Under the pieces are notes generated by a model, which worked only from the letters and a program-made list of their open reading frames with translations, ran no database searches and had not been told where the DNA came from. A stretch of DNA of 50,857 nt. Source: Catajapyx aquilonaris (lineage: Eukaryota). Of the stretch, positions 4,225 through 50,857 are shown piece after piece. Location: NCBI GenBank assembly GCA_000934665.2, contig KZ538729.1, forward strand, positions 1-50,857, written 5' to 3'. Each line of letters starts with the position of its first letter. Within the stretch, counting starts at the first letter, position 1. The translations under genes and the position numbers were made by a program.

Positions 4225-4391
4225 TACAAGTAGTTCAGAGAGATGTTTCTCAAGATTCGGCCAAATTGTCTGGGAGAAAAAAGTAAGCCTATTAACGGAA
4301 GTTCATCCCTGAAAATTGCATATTACAAAATTATGTACAAATACATAGTAAGTCTCAGATGTACGTTTCGTCCGTTAATATGAATCAATTT

Positions 4392-4735
4392 GGGGAGACG
4401 GAGTGGCGCCGCGGTAACGCGCGCGCCCACGGAAGTTAAGGTCCCGGGTTCAATCCCCACCCGGGGGTTCCCACCTTCTTTCGTGCAGAGTTGGGCCATC
4501 TCTGGCTTCGTTTCGGGTGGCAATTTCCGGCAGACTAAGCCACCCGGGGGAGTTCACAAAATGACGATTAGAGACATTGCACTTGCACTTTGCACATCCC
4601 CTCCCACCCACCCTTGGAGCATACTAATTAAGATTCTTCTTAAACTCGCTCCAAAAACAATTCCAAAGGTGGCAACCCACCCCCCCCCCCTAAGGAGTAG
4701 TATAACTCCCCCCGTGGGGTAATGAAAAAAAACAA
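4392..4735 (+). mobile_element. tRNA-derived SINE
   Basis: A-box-like GTGGCGCCGCGG, B-box GGTTCAATCCC, A-rich tail, 12-bp TSD ATGAATCAATTT (4380-4391 / 4736-4747). A close copy lies at 46956. Confidence 0.88.
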
Positions 4736-4749
4736 ATGAATCAATTTTA

Positions 4750-5622
4750 TTTTTACACGCTTTATATTAGCTTCACCGTCACGGGTGTGTGTGAGTGTGC
4801 GTGCAGCGAGTTCGCAATTTCCACACTATCTAGTGGTAGGTAGTCACGTCAGTGGGTGAGTTCGCAACATCCACGCCAGACTGCGCGGCGGAGTGACAGG
4901 CTCTCATAATAGAGTTCGCTACCTCCACACTAGAGGGCGGGAGTAGACACAAGAGACTGTCATCTTAGATGGCGCGACTACTCGCCTTTCCTCCATCATC
5001 CACCACCGAAACACCGTCACTTCCCCATTATATCACCAGACAGTTACACCCGGTTACACATCACCTCCTCATCAGGACCAAGGAACTTACTGTAAGTGTT
5101 CTTTCTTTTCTCTCCATAAATGTGGCATTGTATATGCTACATATCGGCAGTGACAGCCGCACAAACACACCGAAAATCGGTGTCATTCTAATTCTGAGCT
5201 ATTAAATCACATTTTCTTCTAATCCATGACGTCTTTTATTTCAATGTACACTCTAACACTACTACTACCTAACTCCCCATGTACTGTTCACGCCATTCCT
5301 TCCACTTTATCACTAAAAACAGTTAAAATAAAAATAAATAAATTAACCTTTTTAAGAACACGCTCTATCTTTCCAAGTGCACTAAAAATTAGAAAATAAT
5401 TTCTTCCAGAATCTTCAGCTTTCTCTTCGACATTGAACTAAACAGAAGATTCATTACTTTCCTCCCATATAGGTATTGTTTTGCTTTCCTTATATTCTCA
5501 TAAGGCCTACGTGACAAAAAATAAAGCGTGGTCACTAATTACACATTTCATACATCCATACTATTGAACATTACCATATTCAGTATTAAATGTAATATGT
5601 TAGTACCCACGCTTTAATTTTT
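4750..5622. mobile_element. Possible Helentron-associated (HINE/DINE-like) element
   Basis: Starts TTTTACACGCTTTATATTAGCTTCACC followed by a (GT)-like tract and three GAGTTCGC..CCAC repeats spaced about 50 bp apart. It has a subterminal inverted TAAAGCGTG (5522) and a terminal hairpin at 5520-5620. Boundaries are uncertain and overlap the foldback element below. Confidence 0.45.
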
Positions 5623-9087: not shown

Positions 9088-12817
<3,730 letters not shown>

Positions 12818-20333: not shown

Positions 20334-22301
20334 TGTTTACTATTTAGTAAACTCCTGGACTTCCTAAAAATAACTCATTTTAGTTCACATTTTACCATAC
20401 CAGAGGGTGAGTCACTGAATCCCACCAAACTTTGGCATTGTCGTAGTCATAATTTGTGGAATTCAGCATCACCAGTCATCGACGGTGTTAAAAAAATGCA
20501 CTTTCAAACATTGAAAAATTACGTTCATATTTTGAAAATTTACCATGCAGTCGAATAGGTGATAAAATTTTTGAGTGGCTCATTGTCTGTCAAAGTTAGC
20601 GTATTTATTGGCTATTTAATGTCTGGTTGTAACAATTTACATTATAATACTATCAGGAAAAAAGCGAATCGATTTAAATAATTTGAACTGAATTTTACAC
20701 TGAACAATTTCTTTGAAAGCCGTGTATGCTACTTACCTTCGAGCAAGACACGTAAGCCTCACATGCTCCCATAAGGCGCACTGAGCAGGTCGGTACTACA
20801 TACAATCATTCTCTTTGCACTCATTGCATCTGATTGCCTGCCTGCACCTATGCGCGAGCATTACATCTGGTTTATTGGCCCTGATATTTTTGGCTAATTA
20901 TCGGACAATGGAGGGCTGGTGATAACGTCCGGGTAGCGTGTTTGATTCGAGGCATTGTCCAATACTATCTTCAAAGATGTCTATAGGATTTAATAATGGC
21001 GGAGTGTTTTCTTTTCCGAGAATGATGCGCTTGCATGACTGTGAAGAATAATGGCCCAAAGTGGTTTTTACACATTTGCGTGCGCATTCGGATACATAAT
21101 TTACGGCCGTCAGGTTTTAACTAAAGTATGGAATACATTAGAAACCCTATTTCGTTTCAAGAACACTCAATTGACGTTTACACAGTCATTTTCTTTGTTC
21201 AATTTATAGTTTTCTTTTCTGCCTCTAAGGCTGGTTGGTTGAAGGGGAATAAGATCTGACACCCAGTGTGACTTATCACCCCCGAGGCTATTATGATGAC
21301 AGTTTGTGGGATACCGCATACAGGAATAATGATAGGAAAGGTGGGAAGGAACCTCAACATACTCGTATACTATACAGTAGACTTAGCTTCCTTCCGCTAA
21401 TATGGCTCTGATGAGATTTTTATCTTTAGAAGTAAATATCTAGGTAAATATTAATAACACGACTCAATAATGGACTCTATTCTGCATTGGTTTTCAATTT
21501 ATAAAAATTTATTGAACCATCAATCACATTTTCAAAGAAAATACTGATGCGAAACATTAATATAAACCCATGTCGTTGCACCGTGTAAATAAAATAGTTC
21601 TGATTAAAGACAACACATTTTACAGGAATATGTGCACCAAAAAATAATTAACACTAGTTGAAGAGTGGGACAGGTTGAATTAAATCTAATAACTCAAAAA
21701 CTATTTTGAATGGACGTTTTCCAGCATGGACTTCCTCCACCTTCCCATCAACTGTGATTCCATGCCAGTAATAACTTAGGTGCCGTATAGGGAAAAAGCA
21801 GAGAGAAGAGATAGGTTTTCCTGACACTCGAATAATTATTTTCCGAGACTATAATTTTTTAAAGCAAGCCATTAATTCAAAACGATGAAATTCAAAGGTC
21901 ATGCATGAACATGAACACACTCTTGGGCATAAGACCATGCATGCTTTTATAATAAAAAATTGAATATGGACATTTAAATAAGTGACTGCCCTGTGGGGCA
22001 TACCGGTACTGAAACAATTGGGTGTGTGGTATGATAATGACCGTATCGAAATTCGATTCTGTGGCTTATGGCCGCATTTCCTTTTATAGCCCACAAATCA
22101 AAAAGTGAATGAAAATTGAGTAGAAAAGCATTGGTAAAAGGCCAGGAAGCCGCAACCACACATAATTGTCAGATTCTGACACAGATGTATGTATTCTGCA
22201 TCAATTGAGTGGCAAATATAGATAGCATTTTTGATTAATTTATGGATTCACTATATTTCCAAGTGTTACATCTTTAGCCCAAGAAACAATAATATTCAAC
22301 A

Positions 22302-23101
22302 TACTATCGGGTTCAAATACTTTTGGCCACTTTATCCTGGTCTTGAAGCAACCTTCACACACACACCACACACAGTTCTGTTCTGAATTAGCTGTGGGGA
22401 CGTAAAAATTCCACTTTTCGAAGCTAGTGTAAACTAACCTAACCTAACCTAACCTAACCTACCCTACCCTACCCTACCCTACCCTACCCTACCTAAACTA
22501 CCCTACCCTCACTCACCTAGGCTGAGAAAAATGGACTTTTGTGAAACCCTACGAATGAAAATAGTGGGGACATGTCCCCACTATTTTTTTACGTCCCCAC
22601 TGTAATAGTACACAGCGCGTGTTTTTTTAGTGGGGACCTGAAAATGTCCCCACAATTAAATTGTGGGGACACATGTCCCCACAGCTATAGTAAAATCACA
22701 AAAAAACACAAACTTCCGTCCCCTGAGCTAATGCAAGACCCGTACACACAGGCGCGCATTCCTATCCTTGTGAGGTTTTTCCAAAATTTCAAATTTAAAA
22801 CTAACCTAACCTAACCTAACCTACAAGGAAACACGAAATTTTGGTGAAATATATTTTACTGTCTTTATGAGGTATTTTTCTATTTTACCCTATCCTTGTG
22901 AGGCCTGTGTTCACTATGAGGTACAGGAAAACTACCTCGTAATGACAAAATTCCTCACAAGGATAGGAAAAACGCGAAAAAAATTCCTCACAAGGATAGC
23001 CAGACGCGTCCACACCCACACACCTCCTTAACGTGGGGCATGTGCGAAGGGTTGCTTCAAGACCAGGATAAAGTGACCAAAAGTATTTGAACCAGATAGT
23101 A
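22302..23101. mobile_element. Composite TIR element containing (CCTAA)n/(CCCTA)n tracts and GTGGGGAC/GTCCCCAC palindromes
   Basis: TIRs of about 60 bp (TACTATCGGGTTCAAATACTTTTGG..TTGAAGCAACC / GGTTGCTTCAAG..CCAAAAGTATTTGAACCAGATAGTA). Internal CCTATCCTTGTGAGG occurs as both direct and inverted copies. Confidence 0.7.
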
Positions 23102-36862: not shown

Positions 36863-37192
36863 CCGTGGTAGAGCTTGACCTCATCTGAGGTAATCAGCAC
36901 GGACCTTTATTTATTACATCAAGTACATTTTTGAGCCTTTTTACGTGGCGCCCGGGCCCACGGGCAGGATGACAGGAGGGGATGTGCAAGGTGCAGTGCA
37001 ATGTCTTTATGTGGCCATTTTTAGTGAACTCCCCCGGGTGGTTTAGTCTGTAGGAAATACCACCCGAGACGAAGCCAGAGGTGACCCAATGAACTCTGCA
37101 CGAGATGAAGGGGGTGTCCCCGGGTTGGGATCGAACCCGGGACCTTAACATCCGTGGGCGCGTACGTTACCGCAGCACCACTCCGCCTCCCC
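36795..37192 (-). mobile_element. tRNA-derived SINE with an alternative 3' tail ending in (TTA)n
   Basis: Head and body match the 4392 copy. B-box GGTTCGATCCC. 15-bp TSD AACGCATGCCACTTA (36780-36794 / 37193-37207). Confidence 0.88.
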
Positions 37193-37617: not shown

Positions 37618-37965
37618 TTTTTTTTACGTTACCCCGTGCTAGGGCCATAGGCCCTTATAGGGGGTGGAATACCACCATTTTTCCTTCAATTTTCTGATTT
37701 TTTTCTTCTAACTCCGGTGCAAGAATGAAAGGACATGAGGTAAGGATATAGGGATTTTGGGGGAGGGAACATTGGTGCAAGTGCAATGTCGGTAAAGGGG
37801 TCATGTGCTGTTCCCCAGGAGGTTATAGGTTGCCAGACACCTCCTTGGTGCAGGTCAGAGGCCCTCCTGACGCAGGTGAAAAGAAAGTTCCCCAGGCGGG
37901 GATCGAACCTGGGGCCTTTCACTCAGCAAGCCGAGACGTTACCATCACGGCCACCACACCTCCCC
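37618..37965 (-). mobile_element. tRNA-derived SINE (third head type)
   Basis: Head GGGGAGGTGTGGTGGCCGTGATGGTAACG, B-box GGTTCGATCCCC, A tail, TSD AAGAAATAAATC (37605-37616 / 37966-37977). Confidence 0.85.
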
Positions 37966-38021
37966 AAGAAATAAATCATTAGACCTACCTCGTTCAGGCC
38001 TAATTAATACACTTTTGTTCC

Positions 38022-38077
<56 letters not shown>

Positions 38078-38082
38078 TGGTA

Positions 38083-38390
38083 CAGTAGAACCCTGATTAT
38101 CCGACTCCTCGGTTTATCCGCTCGGCAATAAATATATATTTTCTCATGAAATATTGTAATGTTCTACGCATTTGTTTCTTTTGCCTTAATAATTGTAAAT
38201 ACAGTACAGTATAGAGTGTGTGTATAAAAGAAAAATACTTCACTATTTCTTAGAAAACCATAATATTGTACGTTATTAAATGTTTAATGTTTTTTGTTGT
38301 GTTTCATTGAAGTTTTTTTACTCCTCGGATTATCCGACCTTTTCTGTTATCCGATACGACCATGCCCCGGTCCCCTGGGTGACGGATAAT
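38083..38390. mobile_element. pogo/Tc1-like MITE remnant
   Basis: Starts TA|CAGTAGAACCCTGATTATCCG, has repeated TTATCCG motifs and an inverted CGGATAAT near the end. The right TIR is incomplete. Confidence 0.5.
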
Positions 38391-39106
38391 AATAGTAACC
38401 GGTTAATGTCTGCAATTAAGAACGACCTGAATCTCACTGGAATTACTTCCAGAATTGAAGATTTATTTCATTTTCAATATTGCACTTACGATATCTCATG
38501 CGATTGCGTTTTTTTCTTCAAATATTCAAACCCTGTAATTCACTGTCATGAAAACTGACTTGACCATTATAAAGTATAAGCGTCGGCGATTATATTGCAA
38601 AATGTTTAACCAAATTTCGACCAAAATGTGACTCTGATCGATCTGCATTTTTAAGATTCTTAGGAGCATTCTTAAGATAATTATGTTACATAACATATAA
38701 GCCAAGAGTCACGTTTTGTTCCCACACCTGCCCCCCCCCCCCACCAGTTTCCATTACTTCTTCAAGATTAATCCTTTTTCACATTTCTACCCGGATTATC
38801 CTCCACTGCCGGATCTCACGTCCCTTTTTAAAAGAGGAAGCGTCACCCTCACCTGTAAAGACACTGTATCCTACGGTACTTTTTGTGGCGGGACAATCAT
38901 TTTACGTCACTCCGGATATTTAGTTATGCATGGCTTGTTAATTTATGCGCGGCAGTTCATAATGACACAATGGCGTCTGAGGAAAGAGCTGGGATGCTGC
39001 TCAGGAATGTTCTGAAGCAGTCTGTAAGAAGGTGAGGACCGAGAAAGATATCCGGAGAAAAGGAATGTCCGACTTATTGTGAGATAGAGGACCGGTGTCC
39101 ATCAGG

Positions 39107-39368
39107 ATGCTGCCAGGACACCTGTCTGCATGGATTATCATGCTGGTCACGTGTGTATTTCCTGTGAGCGAAGTTGCGCTTGGACTTCCGACCAATTCGA
39201 CAAGGAATAGGGACGACAAATGTGAGATCTAATGTTCAATATTCCTCTAATTAGCTTGCTATGACTTACATCATGACACTGCATAATAATTACGATACGT
39301 ATGAATATTTTGTCCTAATTTTTGTGTGCGTCGTTTTGTGGGCTACAGGAACGCCCAGAAGTGAAGGG

Positions 39369-39443
<75 letters not shown>

Positions 39444-42400
39444 CACGTAATACATTTTTGCCGCAAAATACCGAAAAGCTGACAATTACATCATTAAAAA
39501 TAAATTCTGTAGTTACCTGTAAATTACTCAAATGCTCTTGATCTGTTTGCAAAAGTGTAGACGATAATAGTGTCGCATGTGTCAGGAGGCGTATACTCAT
39601 CCAGGTCACTCGCAATCGACAAACTCGATTGACGTCAAAATGACGTCGCCAATTCTCCTCGCCCTGCCCTGGTCATCATTGGCGACGTCATTTTGACGTC
39701 AATCGACTTTGTCGATTGCGAGTGACCTTGATGAGTATACGGCTCCTATATAAGTTATTGTATGGTATAAAAGTAAATTATAAAAATTTGCTGAACAGCA
39801 TAGCCCTATTGCACTTTCTTAAGCTTCCAGCATTTACTAGCATGACATTACATACGTGGAGTGGTGCTCAACGACAAAATAATAATAATACCAAACATTT
39901 CCCATGCGACTATATTTAAATCTTTTTACCCAACCTATATTTATTATTAATAGAATTGTGATTAACTGGATTCATCATAATCACTGATATCAAATATTGT
40001 TCAACAGTATTCCCCATCTTCTCCGTCTTCCGATTCAAGAACGAACCTTGCACAACATCAGGTGACGAAGAAGGCACCTGTTATACCAGGTAAAAAAAAA
40101 AGTAGCACACATTGTATTGCCGACAAAATGGGATCGATCACTTTAATAGCCTTGAAATGAGGCCTAATTTTTTTTTAGTGTGCTTTACGGTCGGCTGATG
40201 TCTCCTTAAGCGGAAACAGCTGGGTTACTGTCACGAGACAGTTACCTCACTCAAATGTTACTTGGGCGTTGTGTTCCACATTTATAAACTCATTATGCAA
40301 GGCTATGAGTGTGAGACAATTGGGGAATGGCAAAGGAACAAAAGGGGTTCTGACACAGTATAATTATGTCACGATTTTTTTCCGTCTTTCTTAGGGAAGA
40401 ATGCATCAAACGTGGAGGAATTGCATATGTTGGATGTGGAATTCCGTTCGCCGTTTGTTGTGTCTGTAGGTCGAGATAAATAATTGAAGGTCACTTTTGA
40501 GCACTCATTATTATTACCGTACTTGTATTTCTTGCAGTTTCGTTTACATGTGGAGCTCAGAGCACATACAACAGTTCCTATTTTATTAGCCCTCACTATC
40601 CAGCACCATATTGGGAAGAGAGTATATGCATCCACAAGGTCATATTGGTGAGTATTGCTCACTCACTACTGTCAGTACTCAGTGAGTATTGCTCACTCAG
40701 AGCTACTGATTTCCCAATAATAATTGCCCCCAATATTCATCTGCAAATGTATTTGCGATTTTAACTAATATGAACTTGAAAAGTAAATAAAGGGTTGAGT
40801 CACATTAAACTGGGGGCAAGTTGCAAAGATGTCCAGGACAAACATTGTATTTGGTTTGGTGTCACCTTTACTCATAGAGATGGATAAACTGTTGCCATCT
40901 AAGTGACCACTTAGGGCCCACCTTGATTAACTTTAATTATCTCGAACTTTGTAATATTTTTCAGAGGCATTGCCTAGATTTTATGGCTCTATGTACAGTG
41001 CAAGTTTCCTGTGTAACATAACAATCAGAATGAGCTAATCATAATGCAGCATAATAATATTATGCTTGCTTAATATGTCAGCGTTACCTGTGAAATGGTA
41101 GTTACAATAAGTAGTATTATTGCATCCCTTATCCACTTTCAGCCAAATAATTGCTGCCAAGTAAAAGTAGTGTTTGAAGACGTGGACATGAGGTCACCGC
41201 ATAAACGAGGAGATTGTTGGGCGGATTCACTAGTGATTGAAGGAACAGATTCCTACTTGCCGCCTCTATGTGGGAAACTTACTGGACAACACTGTAAGTA
41301 TAGCCACATTTTATTATGTACGATTTGTGTTCTGGCACATAAACGCACTTTGTAAAAATAAACACATAGCATAAAATGGCTGTTAGTATTGTGTGTGGAT
41401 TTCATCTCATGAACTTATGAAAACTAAAGGGCATGTACAGGAGCATTATATTTTTAAACATTTCAGTGTATCTGAGCGTGGGAAACGCTGGCTATGTAAG
41501 CTTTCAGATCAAGTCTCATGGGCACCACATGAAACGTCGATGGAAAATTTTAGTGACACAAATACAGTGTTGCGCTGCTACAATGGGTGAGCTATTTCTG
41601 TCATAAAATGAGCGTTGATTTATTACTTACTGGTTCACTCTTTCAGCCCCTCCTGGTTGCTACCAGTATTACACCGGATCTTTAACAGGGACGGTGTTGA
41701 GCTTTAATGCTCAAGGGCACAAGCCATGGAATATGAACAAACTTAATTATGGAGTGTGTGTCAGAAAGGAGAAAGGATTTTGCGCTATTCAGGTATTTGT
41801 TATTCAAGCAATTATTTATTAATATTCGTGGTGTCATAACTCATAAGGGATAATGCAATCTACTTCAAACTCGCATATCTCGAAATCATTACAATGTGAC
41901 TGTGATTGTTCTGAATTTTAAATCGTCAGTTATATTTAGAAAGTTCATGCAAATATGTGACTGTTATTTTCTCATCAGTGGTCAGTTTGTCGCGGCGGTC
42001 GCAAGCTTCCCGACACTGACGACAAGTCACCGCTCGAAAATCTGTCACCCGTGCAGTTATGCAGTCTCAAAAAGGTTGCCAACACATTGCTGTCCAGAGG
42101 AATGATGCTGCCAGAAATTCTTCGAACAATATCGTGCAACTCCACCGAATCTGTCACAATGGCAATTCCCATCGGGGCTACAATGACGCCACCTGTCGTG
42201 ACAGCGGCATACGACAGCCATTTTGATTCACCTCTTAACGTTACCGATGATTTTGCCGCTACCACAGAACTACCTCCCGTTACTACTGGACTTCCGATTC
42301 TATTGACATCTGCCAGACCTTTGGAGCCACCTAGACAAGTCAAACACTATGATACCAACTTTAACGTCGACCTACCTGCCCATTTTCAAAACGCTATTTG

Positions 42401-45196
42401 GGAAAAGTTCATGGCCGTCATCAAACCCATTGTTGCACAACAATTAGAGTCTCTTGGACTGGGAAATCAGCAGATGCAGTTTAATGCTTTGATACCGAAG
42501 GAGTCTGAGTACTTACTATCGGAGAAGATAGCTAATAACCTGGCAACGCAACAGAACTTCAACCCGTACAATCAACTTTGCAGCCAAAATCTTTCATCTG
42601 GTTTCATTCTCTTCGACAACATGACCATACCTCTACCACCGATTGCTTCGTGCAACCAATCTAACCCACAAACGTCGCCAGAGCTTACCACCATCATTGA
42701 TGTGCCTCCAATCGAAGTATTGCCAACCACCGTCTCATACACAACAACAGACATTGTCATAACCCCTCCTGAACAGATCCTAATTCCTGCTTTTACTGTA
42801 GGGTCACCCGTAACGGAAACTCAAGCCGTTACGGATGTGCCTGGAATTCCAGTTGGGTCTGGGCAGCAGGTGCCAGGGTATCCCGGTGGAGGTTTCTCAC
42901 CTGGTAGTTCAATGTTAGGGTTTCCTATTGCCAATCCTGGTACATACCCTGGTTATCCTGGTGCTATATTTCCAGGTTATCCTGGAGCAATAGTGCCCGG
43001 TTATCCTGGGGCTATAGCACCAGGATATCCTGTTGGATATCCCCCAGGATTCATACCGTCTTTTCCCAATGGGGTAATATCTGGAGTTCCTATAAACGGG
43101 GTTTACAATGGATATCCTTGGGCCCCAGCTGGTATATCAGGAATTCCTGTCCTTCCTCCATCCAATGAAATTCCCGGTAGTGTTGCCACAGATATTCCAG
43201 GATATCCCATAGGAGGTAATTCAGGTGTTACAGATGCCACAGAATCATCTGTTCCTGGAGTTCCTGTGGAAAATCCCTATGGGAGTATACCTGGATATCC
43301 TAGTGCCGTAGTTCCTGCAATTCCAGTTGGACCTGTGTCACAGGGTATTCCAGGATTCCCTGCAGGAACAGTCACTGGCATTCCAATTGGTTCTCCGTCT
43401 CAGGGAATTCCAGAAACTCCAGGAAATATTCCTGCAACTCAAATTGGCCCTTCTTCCTCAATGCCAGGAAATCCTGGCAGTGTTATTCCTGGTACACCTG
43501 TAATTGGGACTCCTGGGGGAGGTGCTCCAGTAGCTGTCCCTGGTGGTGTTATTGGCCCTTCTTCCTCAATGCCAGGAAATCCTGGCAATGTTATTCCTGG
43601 TACACCTGTAATTGGGACTCCTGGGGGAGGTGCTCCAGTAGCTGTTCCTGGTGGTGTTATTGGCCCTTCTTCATCCATAAATCCAGGCATTTCTGGAGGC
43701 ATGATAGCAGGAGTTCCTGTTGGTCCCCCTTCAACGGGAATATCAGGAGGTACCATTCCTGGAAGTTCAGTTCCGGGAGTCCCAATAAGTCCTGCAGGAA
43801 TTCCAGGAGGTTCTATTGGTACCGTTCCTGGAGGAGCAATACCTGGCATACCAGTTAATCCACCAACCTCTGGAATTTCTGGGGGAGCAAATCCAGGAAT
43901 TCCTCCAGGAACTGGATTTCCTGGCGGCATGATACCTGGGATTCCAGGGATTATAATTCCGGGAGCACCTGTGGGACCTTCTGTAATTCCCGCGGGAGCA
44001 ATTCCAGGAATACCAATGGGACCTGGATTTCCGGGAGGTATAATACCTGGAGCTACGAGTCCTACTGAAACAGTTCCTGGAATTACTGTCACTGGGGCTC
44101 CAGGAGGCGCATTTCCTGGAACATCTGCAGGACCTGGATTTCCTGTAGGACTCATTCCTGGCATTCCTGGTGGTGCTATTCCTGGAGCAGGGCCAGGAAT
44201 TTCTGGAGGCTTAATTCCAGGAGCCCCGATTAGTCCCCTTGGAAACCCTGGAGGAGTCACTCCTATAACTCCCGCAGGTCCCGCTCCAATAGGTCCAGGA
44301 TTACCAGGAGGATTCATTCCTGGTATCCCAGTCAACATTCCTTCAGCAATAATCCCCGGAATCCCCGGTGTTCCGGTTCCAGCCATTCCAGGAGGCCCTG
44401 GTCTAGTCCCTCTAGGTTCTATTCCTGGAATTCCTGGGGCTGACATTCCGGCGATCCCAGTAGGCCCGGGAGGATCAATCACAGGTGCTGGCGGTATCGC
44501 AGGTGGTGTCGCAGGGGGTATCGCTGGGGGTGTAGTGCCCATTATTCCCATAGGTCCTCCGGGTCCTATATTCCCGCCTGGTACTACCACTGTGAATCCA
44601 ACTGAAACCCCGACGACAACCATGGGTCCTGTTAATCCAAATACAACTTCGGGCCCTCTTCCGTTGCCACTTCCCATACCTATACCGATACCGATTCCTA
44701 TCATTATTATTGGGGGTGGAGGTGGTGGAGGTGGAGGAGGAGGTGGTGGTGGAGGTGGTGGTGGTGGTGGTGGTGGTGGGGATGGTGGTGGTGGGGATGG
44801 GCATGGGCATGAGCATGAGCCTTATAAATATCCTGCCTACATTCATGGAGGAATTCCGGCAAAGAAGCTGTGGCGTAAAGGATTTATCATATGTAAGTAG
44901 TACTTCATGAGATAATAAACCGTACATTAAACTGAACAAGTGCATATGCCAGGCGCTTGAATACTTACGTGTTTTCCTAAGAGCCGTGCCTGTTCTGTCT
45001 CTGAAATAGATGGAAATACTGTACTTGCAAAATTATATCAGTTTATAATGTTATGAAGATATATTAGAGGTTTAACAGCTCTTATTTTGTCATTTCAGCT
45101 GACACGGAGCCATTCATGATGCATTTTATCACCCAAGGTCACAAGGATGTGGAGCCATTCTGCATCAAGTGGCACCTAATTCAGTGCGAAAATTAG
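39107..45196 (+). CDS. Secreted arthropod-type CUB-domain protein with a giant Gly/Pro-rich insert, 9 exons, ~1268 aa (39107-39221, 40008-40089, 40395-40465, 40538-40647, 41143-41293, 41467-41586, 41647-41792, 41979-44892, 45099-45196)
   Basis: Signal-peptide-like MLPGHLSAWIIMLVTCVFPVSEVALG. Cys-rich module LFPIFSVFRFKNEPC..GTCYTREECIKRGG..C..FAVCC. CUB motifs YFISPHYP, CQVKVVFED, LCGKLTGQHLY, RRWKILVTQIQC. Second domain APPGCYQYYTG..SFN..YGVCVRKEKGFCAIQW, with a final exon SDTEPFMMHFIT..FCIKWHLIQC*. All introns GT-AG; exons sum to 3807 nt, in frame. Confidence 0.85.
39584..39747. repeat. Near-perfect hairpin/MITE in intron 1 of the CUB gene
   Basis: Arms of about 70 bp (AGGAGGCGTATACTCATC..GACGTCGCCAAT / ATTGGCGACGTC..GATGAGTATACGGCTCCT) around a loop of about 24 nt. 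Confidence 0.85.
43443..43690 (+). repeat. 108-bp (36-aa) coding tandem repeat, two copies plus a partial third
   Basis: IGPSSSMPGNPG(S/N)VIPGTPVIGTPGGGAPVAVPGGV starts at 43443 and 43551, with a partial copy at 43659. Confidence 0.95.
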
Positions 45197-45809
45197 ATCA
45201 GTGACAGAAGACATTATGAAAACTTTATTTGACGAAAGTTGGGTCTGTTAATTACATTGGTGGTATTTTTTTGGCTGCGGCCAGTATTACCTCTGCCTGA
45301 ATATTGAAATTTCCAACACACTAAGTTTGTTATTCAGCCTATTATAAACATAATACTCTCTTTTAACAGGCAGCCGCTGTGATTGACATGATTATTGTCA
45401 AGGAATGATAGTAATTTATTAGAGTGCTTGTAGGTGAATAAAGTATGCCATAATGTATAGTTGTATGGGCACTTTTGCTTAAGCCATAGGACCCATAGGA
45501 AAGTCTGGGGCCCGTCACCTTACTTATTTGGTCAGATCTCTCGCTTTTCTATAAACGTGACCAAGGCAGCCTGACTTGCCCTTTGATGATGCGGTCAGTT
45601 GACAGAAAATGGGTTTTAAAAGTGGCCGTCATGGCTTACAGATGTACTGTAAATTAGTGCCCTCTTAGATATTATTTTTTGCCAACATATCATATCTTTG
45701 TATGCAATTTGGCTAATAAAGCTCCGTGCGATATACCTTAAGAAAACAAGGTGAGAGCACTACTTGAAATGTACATAAGTTATTCATGTATGAAATGTAT
45801 TTATGACTT

Positions 45810-47542
45810 TTAATGGCGAACGCGTAAAATGGGTGCGTTTCTATTTATTTTAATTGTCCTACTTCCTATCAGATGTTTCTTTTTGTTGAATTGGAACCAT
45901 GGATGAATAAAGAAATAATATATTATTTCCGCCAGGCTTATGATGCTAACGCCCATAAATAGGCCCATAATTCCACCAATGGAAGCTGTAAGAAAAATTA
46001 ACGTAAATTAATAATAGTTTCGAAAATACGTAAGCAACAGGTAAATGTATAATTATAGATTTGTTTCTTAGCCACCATAATATGAGGTATTATGCAGCCC
46101 TTGCTTCCCACATTTGCCTTTAACAGAAGATGAACTACGTAAACTTGTCTTACTTGCAACCCTTACCACCCGAGCGTTACAGAATTATTATCAATTTTGT
46201 TTCCCGAAAATCATTGCGAAGGATTCCTTAGAATCCATACATGCATTTTATTATCGTACCTATCATGTCGTTCCAGGTGTACAATATTCCTCGGTAATGG
46301 ACTGGATAATACCATTCTCGATAATAAACCCGAAGCTGGATCAAGTTGCTCCTGGAACAGTAAAATAAAAAATAGATTGGCTTTGATGCAACCCTTTCCT
46401 GGATTTCCAGGACACTAGACGCCGCAGATTTTATCCAGCGATAGCATCAGAAAGAATGGGATTCAGAATCGATTTTGTCGTTGGCGGCAATAATTTTTAG
46501 TGAAAATCGGAAATACGTAATAATTCAGAAGTACCGTAACAGTGAAGCTCAGTAAAATGTTTTTCTCCCGGTTTTTTGAGATATGAAATGGGTTTTGATT
46601 TCAACGTTGAAGTGGCACCAGGAAGAATGGGAGGGTGCTGGTCCTTGATTTCACAGTATGGCAACCCTTCAATGAAGACAACATTACAACGAGCATACGA
46701 ATTTAATTCAATGTCAGTTTAAGGTGCACAGTATGGTGACTATTTAAAAAAATAGGGAGTAATCTACCATTGCTTTAAATTGCCTTAATTAAATGTAAAA
46801 TTCCAATTTTCTCCTACAGCATTTACGAAGTTGAAAACTGCGATTTCTCTGAATTCAAACCTTGATTTTCAATTAACATTGATTAAATTATTAGAAAACA
46901 GAAAAGCTTTAGAGTTTGATATCATTTCCTATATATACATATTCCCACTAAAATAGGGAGATGAAGTGGCGTCGCGGTAACGGATATGAAGGTCCGGGGT
47001 TCAATCCCCACCTGGGGTTCCCACCTTTATCCGTGCAGAGTTGGGCCATCTCTGGCTTCATTTCGGGTGGAAATTTCCTAAAGACTAATCCACCCGGGGA
47101 GTTCACAAAATGACCAATTAACGACAGCGCACATGCACTTTGCACATCCCCTCCTACCAACCCTTGGAGTAATTCATAAGATTTTCTTAACACGCTCCAA
47201 CAAATCCCGATGGTGGTAATCCACCCCCTTCCCAAGGAGTAAGTAGCTCCCTAAGTGGGGCAATGAAAAAAAATAATATTCCCACTAAAAATTATAGCCA
47301 TCAGCAACAAAACAGAGCCTGGTATATAGGCTACATATCCTTTGGAACAGTATGGCAGGGTCCTTACAAGTTGACACCATCAGAGTTGCTCGACATCAAG
47401 TCCCTGTTTGCATGAAATGGAGCAACGCTTATGTCAGTCGAGTAGAAGCAAAATGAACAGCTGAAGGAGCAGCTGCAGTCCATTCCTTTCTCTTCTATTC
47501 CATTTTCTCTGATATTCATAGAGTTGAAACGCTCTGTAATAT

Positions 47543-47618
<76 letters not shown>

Positions 47619-49171
47619 CAAGGACTTGCGGAAATTGGTGATGGCACATATTGATGCTGTAAAGTTGCAGGTGGATCCAGAATTTGCGACTGCAATATAT
47701 AATGGCATGTCTCAAAAAAATGTGCTGATAAAGTGCCCAACATTTCTATATTAAATACTGTATAATATTTCAGAGGAGAACATAATACCGTGTGCTTCAG
47801 TGTTGGGCTTGTATTGTACAGCCTATACCGTAGTGGAAAGGATGTTATGCAGGATCGTTTTTTGCTGAGACTTGCCACAATTATTAATGGAAGTTGTTCT
47901 AATTGATGAGAAATTTAAACTAAATTTTGTGTATTATACCACTAATTCAAAAATCCGCAATAGAAATCGACATTTTGGAATTTTAAAATATTAAAATTTC
48001 TACTGGATGCGCCAAGAACCGTAGCTTTTTCTTTAAAGTAATGGTGCTGTAGCTAATCGCTTTTAGAGTTTATCCAATTGTTAACTTAAACTGTACCGTA
48101 ATGAATGAAATTAATGTGTTCAAACCACGCAAAAATTTGGCCGATAACATTTTTTCTGGATTTTCCGCACTTGACCTGCCATTTGGATTGCATGCGGGAG
48201 GTGGTCTCTGGACCTTGAGCCATCAGTATAGCATACACTATTGTGCAGCAAGGATTCCGGATAGCATACTGCTGATTGAGATCGACCGGCACAACAAAAT
48301 ATTGATTGCGATCAACGGATACTTCAGCTTCTTACACATCATCCGAAGTGAAGGAGTAAGCCCCGTTTGGAATGTTAATCTTGGTGAGTACCGAATTTTT
48401 GATAGTCTCTTAATAAGCATTTAAGTGCAAAAAAATCGCTTACTATTACATAAAATCCTGCACATTTAATTATTCTGCTATTATACTTACCCACACTCTC
48501 GTAATAGTTATATGGGATGCATCCACACGTTCGATTGAAGGTTTGGATGCGGCATTCAATTAGGCAGTTGTAAAACGTGTAAGTGGAAAAGAAGGTCATG
48601 TTATTTTCGTTGGCATACAAGCACTGCCTAAAATCAGGAGGATATTTCTTCAGAGCGGATGTCAGGTCGTTCAGATGAGGGGTAACTGACACGAACACTT
48701 CGTGTCCAGGAGATATTACGAATCCTTGGTGGGACACATCCGGAAAGTCCAGAGAATTGTGCAGAAGAATCTAAAATGAGTTAAGATGACTATACAAGTT
48801 AGCCTATTGATTTATTTTTTGTACCACTATTTTGCAAGTATGACCAGTTTTTACATTTTGGTCCTTTTCAAAAACCTCAGGGACACGTAGTGGTATATGG
48901 CGGAAAAGAAAATCACTTTTTTGCACTTTTTCGCCCTTGATGTAAAAAGTGGTAATGGTCATTTGTTAGGTTTGTTTTTAAGACTTTTAATGAAACTGTC
49001 AACTTTACTGCATTTATTAACTTTAAATGACTTACTTGGAATCCATCATAAGTATCTATTGTCGTGCTGTATTCTTCCATTAGAGGATTTAGTAGAACTA
49101 TAAGACCCATATGAGCTCCAGCACCATGAAGGCGATAAATCGGTGTTATATTTTGTGACTGACCACTGTCC
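45810..49171 (-). CDS. ppk: Pickpocket/DEG-ENaC channel copy G (divergent), 3' part only (49171-49036, 48770-48491, 47689-47630, 47533-47368, 46351-46260, 45985-45810; 5' exons presumably beyond the right edge)
   Basis: RLHGAGAHMGLIVLLNP..DGFQ|ILLHNSLDFP, YTFYNCLIEC..CGCIPY, DCSCSFSC, LRVYY..YTWNDMI, TM2 ASIGGIMGLFMGVSIISLAEIIYYFF. One intron requires a GC donor. Confidence 0.88.
46956..47275 (+). mobile_element. tRNA-derived SINE in an intron of copy G
   Basis: Homologous to 4392-4735 along its length. 15-bp TSD ATATTCCCACTAAAA (46939-46953 / 47276-47290). Confidence 0.88.
47544..47617. repeat. (AAT)n microsatellite; similar tracts at 38022-38076, 39369-39441 and 49791-49839
   Basis: Directly visible in the sequence. 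Confidence 0.95.
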
Positions 49172-49789
49172 CTGTTAGTGAAAAATACATTTATGATATG
49201 TCCATTTTATGTGCTTCTCTTCTACTCAGTTTATATCGTTAGTCATTGTGCTCTTCTATACAAAACGAAATTTTTCTTGATTAACATGGGATTTGGATGC
49301 TGTGGTAGATGAGACGTGCGCCTTCAGCTGGCTATGTTGATTTTTGGAGAATTTATTTGAAAAACATTTACTGCCAAATTGTACTGTTGGAATACAGTAA
49401 TCCTTTCCATTGAACACTAGCATGATTTGATGAAAATCTCGTAGGGCTGAAATTTTTAGCCCATTCCAGATGCAGTTGTAGTACGGAGAGTTTCTTTTTT
49501 TAAATGCAGGGTGATTCAAGATGCTTGTCCTACTAATATGACTATTATTTTGTTGGAATTAATCTGATGATTCTGTGACTTTTGCATGATTACTTTCTAT
49601 GGTTGTCAAAATATTAGCCACTAATATTAGATAACGCTACCCATCCTTTAAAACCTGCAAGGGAGTCTGGCATGCACAAAGTGGGTTCTATCATTGACAT
49701 GAGATGCCGATTGTTCCAATGGGCTGGAAAGTCTTGGCAGGTTAAGCGCTGGAATGGGTGATTCAGTTCCGCCAGCCCACAGTTCAGTC

Positions 49790-49841
<52 letters not shown>

Positions 49842-50479
49842 TATTTTGATAACTATTGAAGGCAACTGTGCAAAAGTAACCGCTAAAAATAATCAGCTGA
49901 ATGCCAACAAATAACCTTTTTAGTCTGACAAAAATTTGTATATCGAGTAATCTTGAAAGACAGTAGTATGTTGTACTATACGCACGTAATTTATTTATTA
50001 TTCATTTAATTTATTTCAATTACCCATTATAGCTATTGATCCTTTGCTGGTATAATCAGGCCTTTGGAAACAAGATTCACGAAATTATTCACTGAACTAT
50101 GCAAATTTTTTTTTTAAAACAAAAAACAAAAAAAACACAAATTGAGAATAGAGGTCAAGGTTTTACTGGACATTTTAAAAACTTAGGATTGTCCACACAG
50201 TATAAAAACCTCACACAAACTGTCACGCTTAGGGCGGGTTTCACCAAGCCAGGTTTTGATAAAACCCCGGTTCTTTCGGAAAATCCCTATTAGGGGGCAC
50301 GGCAGTGCCCCCGCCAAGTTCTCGCCGCACTGCCGGACCACCTTTACCCGACACAACTCACGTCATTTTGACCCCCTCGAATCTTCGCACTGGTGAACAC
50401 ACGTGGCTTCAAAATTTTATTTGGGTAGATAAAAATCGATTAAAAATAATGCCCCCTTACTTCCATGTTCATATCTCTT

Positions 50480-50760
50480 TTCATTTCCGACTTAAAAAAT
50501 CCTAAAAACTCCCAAAACGGCCAAAATGTGACACTGACTGACTCACTCACTCACTCACTCACTCACTCACTGATCATCAAAATTATACGGCACTTCCAGT
50601 GGTCCTAGGATGCTGAAATTTGGTATGCTGGTAGATCTTGTCAAACAAACACCAGAATAAATCTGAAAACGGCACTTTTTTGAGTCAAAATGCTCCCAAA
50701 AAAATATTTTCACGAAGTCTGCTGCTGCTGACCAGATGCGGCATTTTTAACACGGATTAC
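50480..50760 (+). mobile_element. Possible Helitron/HINE-like fragment with a (CTCA)n tract
   Basis: CTGACTGACTCACTCAC..GATCATCAAAA..CCTAGGATGCTGAAATTTGGTATG resembles the microsatellite-bearing rolling-circle elements of insects. The termini were not identified. Confidence 0.35.
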
Positions 50761-50857
50761 TTTTTACTTTGAATTTCCATCAGTTATGCTGGTGCTCCTC
50801 CTGCCTTCATCCCCACGTTCTCATCTCCTCACCCCCCCTCCCTTCCCCCCCCCCTCC

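Follow-up and report, generated by a model that had tools for sequence, protein, structure and literature searches.

The window, a 50,857-nucleotide (nt) stretch of Catajapyx aquilonaris DNA (contig KZ538729.1 of assembly GCA_000934665.2), carries on its plus strand a nine-exon gene that, judged from its sequence, is an intact, divergent representative of the secreted CUB + CUB_animal proteins of arthropods, with an insert whose Gly/Pro form is new. Its second CUB-like domain is interrupted by one giant coding exon, exon 8. The gene model is intact, its family identity and the homology of its exons are established, the repeats of exon 8 carry codon-level selection, and the four Cys residues that span the insert are all kept. 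The product likely has a structural place in a matrix or secretion outside the cell, such as cuticle, egg coat, glue or a silk-like secretion. A structural matrix role as such is in our judgement slightly favoured over its absence, and the architecture together with a matrix-type role stands at about even chances. That this role is elastomeric we infer from amino acid composition.

The nine exons form a coding sequence of 3807 nt with a single stop, encoding 1268 amino acids (aa), and all eight introns are GT-AG. An earlier note, made from the bare sequence, had placed a single 2914-nt exon here with a GTAAGT donor and an acceptor at 45098, which proved exact at the DNA level, and the sequence features it listed (PGYPG, IPG, VPG and GPG repeats, (PI)n, poly-Gly and a His patch) are all present in exon 8 (IPG 24, VPG 9, GPG 6 and PGYPG 4 times). 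In line with its remark that the open reading frame (ORF) track misses eight of the nine exons, only exon 8 is in a list of ORFs of at least 100 aa. The protein does not end on a Cys, as had been read, and runs two residues past the last one. Residues 9–27 are the top 19-residue hydropathy window of the whole protein (2.02), with none stronger later, on hydropathy only. When splice sites were scored on a crude consensus, the intron 8 donor after 44892 scored 4.0 and its acceptor 8.3, among the best of the eight introns. Skipping of exon 8 would break the frame and leave a 271-aa product, and a search of introns 7 and 8 and of the downstream sequence found no ordinary middle exon hidden there, so that this alternative was rejected. 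A look for RNA data, confined to window 41100–45400, listed none, which says nothing about expression. We infer that exons 7, 8 and 9 are spliced as modelled, and the isoform with full-length exon 8 and exon 9 is quite probably made.

Exon 8 is almost certainly a coding exon. It contains no stop in frame and 15–64 in each of the other five frames, and its longest stop-free run is 971 codons, compared with a maximum of 220 in 1000 base shuffles. Its first 290 codons have 47% GC and a GC content at third codon positions (GC3) of 0.46; GC3 is 0.45 in exons 1–7, and the four true introns have 30–36% GC. Every spacing in the repeat families D1, D2, D4, D7 and D8 is a multiple of 3. Mismatch rates between repeat copies at codon positions 1/2/3 are 0.29/0.22/0.48, and of 223 codon pairs with the same residue, 108 carry silent differences (the families overlap in both counts); the seven PGYP copies all differ in DNA. 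Because the repeats stay in frame and have drifted mostly at third positions, exon 8 is coding and old, and selection has acted on its repeats at the codon, that is the protein, level. An antisense frame of 460 aa (43439–44821) was rejected as a gene, as it mirrors the Gly/Pro codons; start and splice support for it were not sought.

We regard a mis-assembly, mobile element or pseudogene as a very improbable source of this gene. The assembly is fragmented (286 Mb in 20,583 contigs, the window being the entire contig C1380), an exon 8 homologue is absent from the searches made, and the gene sits on a long branch of a rough tree of 15 genes that does not fix its position. However, the region 38000–46000, which holds the gene, has zero N, the nine exons are in frame, both ends of exon 8 have family-typical junctions, and exon 8 is single-copy in the genome by four protein and DNA searches, which give lower bounds on copy number.

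Codon-level selection also bears on whether exon 8 is used whole. The internal donor at 43216 equals the best true donor (4.5) and has the right phase; joined to exon 9, or to acceptors at 43467 or 43575, it would make the insert shorter or of several lengths, with in-frame products of 709 aa (splicing to exon 9, without the hydrophobic block) and 1184 aa. Such partial removal is quite improbable: the removable part has the clearest codon-level selection and ~50% GC, against 30–36% in the four true introns, and was therefore coded in at least one form, while chance would be expected to give one high-scoring GT in 171. It is likewise unlikely that exon 8 is mainly terminal, giving a CUB head with a free Gly/Pro tail, a dead domain 2 and an exon 9 that is a relic or a minor form. 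In favour of this view, the frame reaches a stop 6 nt inside intron 8 and AATAAA follows 14 nt further on, the middle signatures of domain 2 are gone, and exon 9 has diverged. Yet exon 9 is open and in phase, lies behind the strongest acceptor of the gene (8.3) and retains the two partner Cys; the intron 8 donor reads GTAAGT in full; and AATAAA is common in an intron of 34% GC (5 such hexamers in 1.2 kb). From domain 2 onward the full isoform has 10 Cys, an even number, whereas the read-through form is left with an odd 9.

The family assignment draws on exon 7, which had 63 database matches at E ≤ 0.001 (identity 26–62%) and scored 57.6 bits (E 2.5e-19) on a hidden Markov model (HMM) of 11 homologue domain-2 sequences, the N-terminal half of domain 2 (PxGCxQY..SFN..YxxCxRxExGFC) being kept. 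Exon 4 matched Pfam CUB at E 0.003 and 18.3 bits, under the cut-off of 21.4. Exons 2, 4, 5 and 6 align to homologues (exon 3 lies outside the alignment), with the six-Cys module and then the first CUB domain kept. Full-length database homologues open with a signal-like start, followed by a six-Cys module and then by a CUB domain and a second, CUB-like one, and the named ones are arthropod (Strigamia T1IMY6/T1JEW3, Allacma CAG7717029, Cherax XP_053629373, Ephemera KAF4518763). The proposal of the earlier note, a secreted protein of the CUB family with a giant coding exon breaking into its second domain, is supported. The name CUB_animal (PF26080) was taken from the Atlas clusters nearest to homologue P0036 (scores 0.94–0.95). 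A Pfam Toxin_32 match on exon 7 (E 0.051, 13.9 bits against a cut-off of 25) was rejected as chance.

The folded models examined were those of homologues P0055 and P0036. The predicted model of P0055 (predicted local distance difference test, pLDDT, 89.5) consists of two CUB domains, its halves matching solved CUB structure with Z 13.2, root-mean-square deviation (rmsd) 2.1 over 111 aligned residues and Z 12.6, rmsd 2.6 over 108; a search with the P0055 sequence for solved structures gave no match. In the genome stretches examined, the exon-7 sequence recurs in at least 31 further places. On contig 8, a single cluster (G000:C8:62000-133100, L048-L055) holds 22 CUB_animal domain-2 copies, most of them without both Cys of one of the covarying pairs described below and without the terminal Cys. 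Two paralogues (G000:C1439:45043-45410 and G000:C319:102900-103363) each have their last coding exon in two tandem copies. According to PMC10214685, CUB domains in general mediate protein binding, so that anchoring of the polymer to partners by the CUB head is plausible by analogy. Within a literature coverage outside which most subscription papers fall, no study on the CUB_animal family or on CUB in the Drosophila apical matrix, and no title on such a domain insert, was found.

By comparison with the paralogues, exon 8 is their middle exon of domain 2, about fourteen-fold longer, because it shares its W-x-x-C opening and phases with them. The paralogue exon after exon 7 encodes 64–75 aa and starts with [WY]-x-x-C (20 extracted from 31 matches, by a pattern that itself required [WY]-x-x-C); like exon 8, many of these exons start in phase 0, and theirs end on a phase-1 donor near 200 nt. 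The Cys residues at positions 28 and 53 of exon 8 fall inside the paralogue ranges of 26–31 and 47–58 (n = 18), with a chance of ~1% if Cys are placed in the first 290 aa, in a post hoc test; non-Cys similarity of the exon 8 start to the paralogues was not significant (137 of 500 shuffles). The first 65 aa of exon 8 may thus be a heavily diverged remnant, with growth 3' of it, and the middle hairpin of domain 2 would be either rebuilt by this remnant or lost. The second QLCS..SCN pair, 173 aa downstream of the first, may be an old duplicate (an internal repeat reached by 39 of 2000 shuffles). The split of the CUB domain proposed in the earlier note stands as to its flanks, which are kept, but it is not clean: CxxDY and FCG are undetectable and only the Cys spacing is retained.

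On the far side of the insert, exon 9 had been read as the last strands of the family. Compared with these (PF..T..GFxLxYxQxxC), it ranked first among 2246 window ORFs with 10.0 bits, a score reached by 0 of 2000 shuffles (1618 scored), and it keeps P4, F5 and F20 with G19 changed, but the match is weak (E 0.08). Cys covariation was followed in 27 paralogues and 19 database domains, 46 rows in all (4 of 31 paralogues were unscored per pair and 2 mis-anchored P0005 rows were dropped). For pair B, the Cys of W-x-x-C with the Cys of GFC, both were present in 27 rows and neither in 19, with none discordant; for pair A, the Cys at the exon 7 end with the terminal Cys, the counts were 24, 19 and 3. 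The pairs are gained or lost separately, most contig-8 genes having one and most database proteins the other. In the window gene all four Cys are retained; each pair has a partner on either side of the insert, and the register is antiparallel (262 + 1266 = 1528, 269 + 1258 = 1527). The corresponding residues of the P0055 model sit at the ends of strands 181–194 and 274–283 (P0055 numbering), which would be neighbours in the CUB sandwich. Since the four insert-spanning Cys are all kept and the pairs covary across the family, the simplest reading, moderately supported, is a predicted double disulfide staple closing a ~900-aa loop; given the full exon 8 + 9 isoform, we consider the stapled loop probable. 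The two covarying pairs lend independent support to the looping-out from a folded domain suggested before. A three-piece complex prediction (exon 7, the first 66 aa of exon 8 and exon 9; alignments not used) gave 0.18 and 0.16 against a mark of 0.34.

Of the ~950-aa polymer claimed in the earlier note, the size of the exon product holds (971 aa), but only 575 aa (42849–44573) are Gly/Pro polymer, with 25% Gly and 22% Pro, together 47%. This core is 77% non-polar (GAPVLI), with a grand average of hydropathy (GRAVY) of +0.44, 0 Lys/Arg, 8 acidic residues and 12% Ser+Thr. Its motifs exceed the means of shuffled sequence (hPG 33 vs 7.4; hPGhP 11 vs 0.5; GYP 9 vs 0.6; PG 65 vs 32.5), and its hPGhP and GYP counts were reached by 0 of 1000 shuffles; hGG, present once, and GxxGxxG are rarer than expected. 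All 12 Tyr of the core lie within its first 155 aa. Elasticity, phase separation and dityrosine links are suggested by this composition.

Long inserts in the CUB_animal domain are, by sequence comparison, not unique to the window gene, and the architecture is not as unprecedented as it had first seemed. From the Cys of YxxC to the last strand the window gene has 1002 aa, P0036 351 aa and the other 18 of 19 complete database domains 61–170 aa. P0036, an unnamed Logan protein of 642 aa from a 2589-nt contig that forms a single-member cluster, carries at nearly the same place in domain 2 a 293-aa insert that is K/P/L/E-rich, charged, low-complexity and partly helical and stands before an abbreviated C..D..IP..LC core; its model is confident for both insert flanks (~88–96, with one block of 63–67 in each) and mostly not for the insert. 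The paralogue G000:C1:20492-21725 (the C1 paralogue) has a 224-residue Ala/Thr/Val/Ser/Gly/His segment (20492-21238, minus strand, L042) where others have ~10–15, the extra ~210 aa sitting in the last exon of domain 2. Both share with the window gene a long low-complexity insert within domain 2 with both flanks kept, but neither insert is Gly/Pro-rich and both are at least 3 times shorter.

These unrelated inserts, together with the variable loop length of domain 2, also fit a different view of the same gene and splicing, in which the insert, tolerated by the family, is disordered and serves as a passive or mucin-like spacer, neither elastic nor assembling. The first 290 aa of exon 8 agree with it, being Thr/Pro/Asn/Gln/Leu-rich (Pro 5–15%, Gly 3–5%) with 6 N-glycosylation sequons. 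We nevertheless find this view doubtful, as the core is hydrophobic and devoid of Lys and Arg, with few acidic residues and little Ser or Thr, its motif order lies far above what composition gives, its Tyr are gathered in one block, and hGG and GxxGxxG are under-represented. Were the insert a mere tolerated spacer, the gene would still exemplify extreme exon growth within a domain, of modest interest.

The comparison of insert length across orthologues called for in the earlier note yielded lengths for paralogues (the 64–75 aa exon) and homologues (the 61–170 aa span), but no exon 8 orthologue. Searches with exon 8 residues 1–300 (2083 candidates) and 285–700 (8000 candidates), among proteins of 534–1700 aa, found no homologue, and an Atlas search with exon 8 gave no usable match. 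A metagenome scan with exon 7 produced 597 pattern matches, 0 confirmed, and a profile search of proteins of 1011–2885 aa returned only two fish multi-CUB proteins, which is weak evidence. As no orthologue was found, how old and how conserved the insert is can be judged only from evidence within the gene.

We propose that the ancestral middle exon of domain 2 (~200 nt) expanded from within to 2914 nt, through insertion in frame and successive rounds of duplication. After secretion, the strand ending at the exon 8 start would pair antiparallel with the last strand, from exon 9; Cys262–Cys1266 and Cys269–Cys1258 would lock the strands, and ~900 aa would protrude as a disordered loop closed by covalent bonds. 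The hPG-rich block, hydrophobic and uncharged, could then self-associate like the hydrophobic domains of tropoelastin, with Pro blocking amyloid, the Tyr block would possibly be oxidatively cross-linked, and the CUB head would anchor the chain to partners. In its boldest form, which we advance tentatively and think unlikely to hold as a whole, this describes an independently evolved ring-polymer elastomer: a ~900-residue hPGhP/GYP chain, clamped at both ends by the CUB domain via two cross-strand disulfides, that coacervates into an arthropod matrix whose nodes are the CUB heads. The corollary, equally tentative, is that the CUB domain fold would be complete only once the far C-terminal strand returns. 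The elastomeric proteins compared here are linear chains whose cross-link domains are terminal or interspersed; a polymer loop closed by one folded domain would, if real, be a different design. In that case CUB_animal would be a clamp that can be reused to display different polymers, something P0036 and the C1 paralogue hint at, the hPGhP grammar would offer an independent natural test of the Gly/Pro elasticity rule, and the expanded arthropod family, of which this genome has at least 31 further domain-2 copies, would gain its first functional lead.

Several observations weigh against this interpretation. The splicing of exons 7, 8 and 9 is predicted from the DNA, and the internal donor and the intronic AATAAA permit shorter forms. 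CxxDY is found in 28 of 31 paralogue regions and FCG in 30 of 31, and the window gene lacks both. The middle-exon HMM had no match in any frame of 41793–45300, hhalign of exon 8 against the family middle gave a probability of 0.1, and a candidate core vestige at the exon 8 3' end was rejected, since 147 of 1000 shuffles score as high. The exon 9 match, besides being weak, has PF in place of the family's GF. The covariation rows are related, the 19 'neither' rows of pair A coming from one contig-8 cluster and one close copy, so that the counts carry no p-value. Protein searches found no exon 8 orthologue, and the polymer is missing the motifs of elastin and resilin and the Lys cross-link domains of elastin.

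Features of the CUB gene and its giant exon 8 (window positions)
Feature	Coordinates	Strand	Content
Exon 1	39107..39221	+	Start codon, probable signal peptide (hydrophobic aa 9-27), short pro-like segment
Exons 2-3 (40008-40089, 40395-40465)	40008..40465	+	Small six-Cys N-terminal module of the family (from Cys list)
Exons 4-6 (40538-40647, 41143-41293, 41467-41586)	40538..41586	+	First CUB domain (from Pfam, alignment and paralogue matches)
Exon 7	41647..41792	+	N-terminal part of second CUB-like (CUB_animal) domain; Cys262 at 41781-41783
Exon 8	41979..44892	+	2914 nt, 971 aa
Exon 8 start	41979..42176	+	W-x-x-C (Cys269 at 41988-41990), further Cys at positions 28 and 53 of the exon; may be what is left, in diverged form, of the ancestral middle exon
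Spacer, Thr/Pro- and Asn/Gln/Leu-rich, non-repetitive	42177..42848	+	Second QLCS..SCN Cys pair, exon positions 201 and 225; single copy in genome
Tyr-bearing Gly/Pro block	42849..43313	+	GYP x9, all 12 core Tyr; 8-aa repeat at 42951-43032
Internal phase-1 donor-like site	43216..43221	+	Score 4.5, best of 171 GT sites in exon 8
Hydrophobic Gly/Pro/Ile/Val polymer, 420 aa	43314..44573	+	G 27%, P 23%, 0 Tyr/Lys/Arg, 3 acidic; 108-nt and 111-nt repeats
Exon 8 end	44574..44892	+	Thr/Pro stretch, (LP/IP)n, poly-Gly, His patch, basic 24-aa tail, phase-1 donor
Read-through stop 44898-44900, AATAAA 44914, ATTAAA 44926	44893..44931	+	Possible alternative 3' end without exon 9
Exon 9	45099..45196	+	Last two strands of domain 2; Cys1258 (45161-45163), Cys1266 (45185-45187), stop

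The CUB gene lies among six tandem ENaC/ASC (amiloride-sensitive, pickpocket-like) channel genes on the minus strand (window 600–35300 and 45813–50857), the first and last of which are truncated by the contig ends. It stands between copy 5 (first exon near 35.2 kb) and copy 6 (last exon 46007–45813), tail to tail with the latter, and nesting within an ENaC intron was rejected on this position. Intron 1 contains a near-perfect inverted repeat at 39584–39747, resembling a miniature inverted-repeat transposable element (arms of 70 nt, 96% complementary, 24-nt spacer). Dispersed short repeats at 37117–37146, 37889–37918, ~4326–4766 and 46951–47250 are probably like short interspersed elements, one such repeat having a tRNA-like GGGATCGAACC box. 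An (AGT)21 microsatellite abutting (TGA)19 occupies 12110–12227, inside an ENaC gene region, and the window also has many (AAT)n tracts and (TAACC)n at 22430–22509.

Among known systems, the closest are the arthropod CUB (PF00431) + CUB_animal (PF26080) proteins, which share with the window gene the signal-like start, six-Cys module, first CUB domain, domain-2 N-terminal half and last strands, and differ in having CxxDY and FCG; the intron position before W-x-x-C is common to the window gene, the C1 paralogue and most contig-8 paralogues. Flagelliform spidroin, built of GPGGX repeats and spidroin terminal domains, also has a long Gly/Pro repeat region flanked by folded ends. Here, in contrast, GPGG occurs once (shuffle mean 2.0), and the ends appear to be halves of one CUB domain. 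Neither a spidroin terminal domain nor an R&R chitin-binding domain had a Pfam match in the eight of nine exons scanned (exon 3 left out).

Resilin combines a YGAP-type repeat with the R&R domain (PMC3233583), the repeats being given as GGRPSDSYGAPGGGN and AQTPSSQYGAP (PMC13052691, PMC3233583). Pro-resilin of the Drosophila CG15920 type shares with our protein its arthropod origin, Gly/Pro-rich repeats and Tyr that could give dityrosine (PMC3233583). The resilin-like character that had been suggested was not borne out: YGAP and YGxP are both absent, and the polymer is hydrophobic and uncharged, with its Tyr limited to one 155-aa block. The missing R&R consensus is also a feature of some resilin-like candidates.

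The resemblance to tropoelastin is one of composition. High Gly+Pro with hydrophobicity is described as a mark of elastomeric proteins in section 13 of PMC5424786, and PG pairs as the transient turns of tropoelastin, with hPGhGG as its unit, in bioRxiv 10.1101/2024.12.03.626628; Lys/Ala cross-linking domains of elastin are defined in PMC13052691. Like the hydrophobic domains of tropoelastin so described (PMC5424786; bioRxiv 10.1101/2024.12.03.626628), the core is rich in Gly and Pro, non-polar and full of hPG turns. The elastin and flagelliform motifs named earlier are not supported: the 575-aa core has 0 VPGVG, 0 hPGhGG and 0 Lys, hence no Lys/Ala cross-link domains, and it prefers hPGhP with Ile. 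The polymer here is moreover a single exon fused into a globular domain, and no homology is implied. It is elastin-like in composition only and is neither elastin nor resilin; by analogy, it may work like the hydrophobic domains of elastin.

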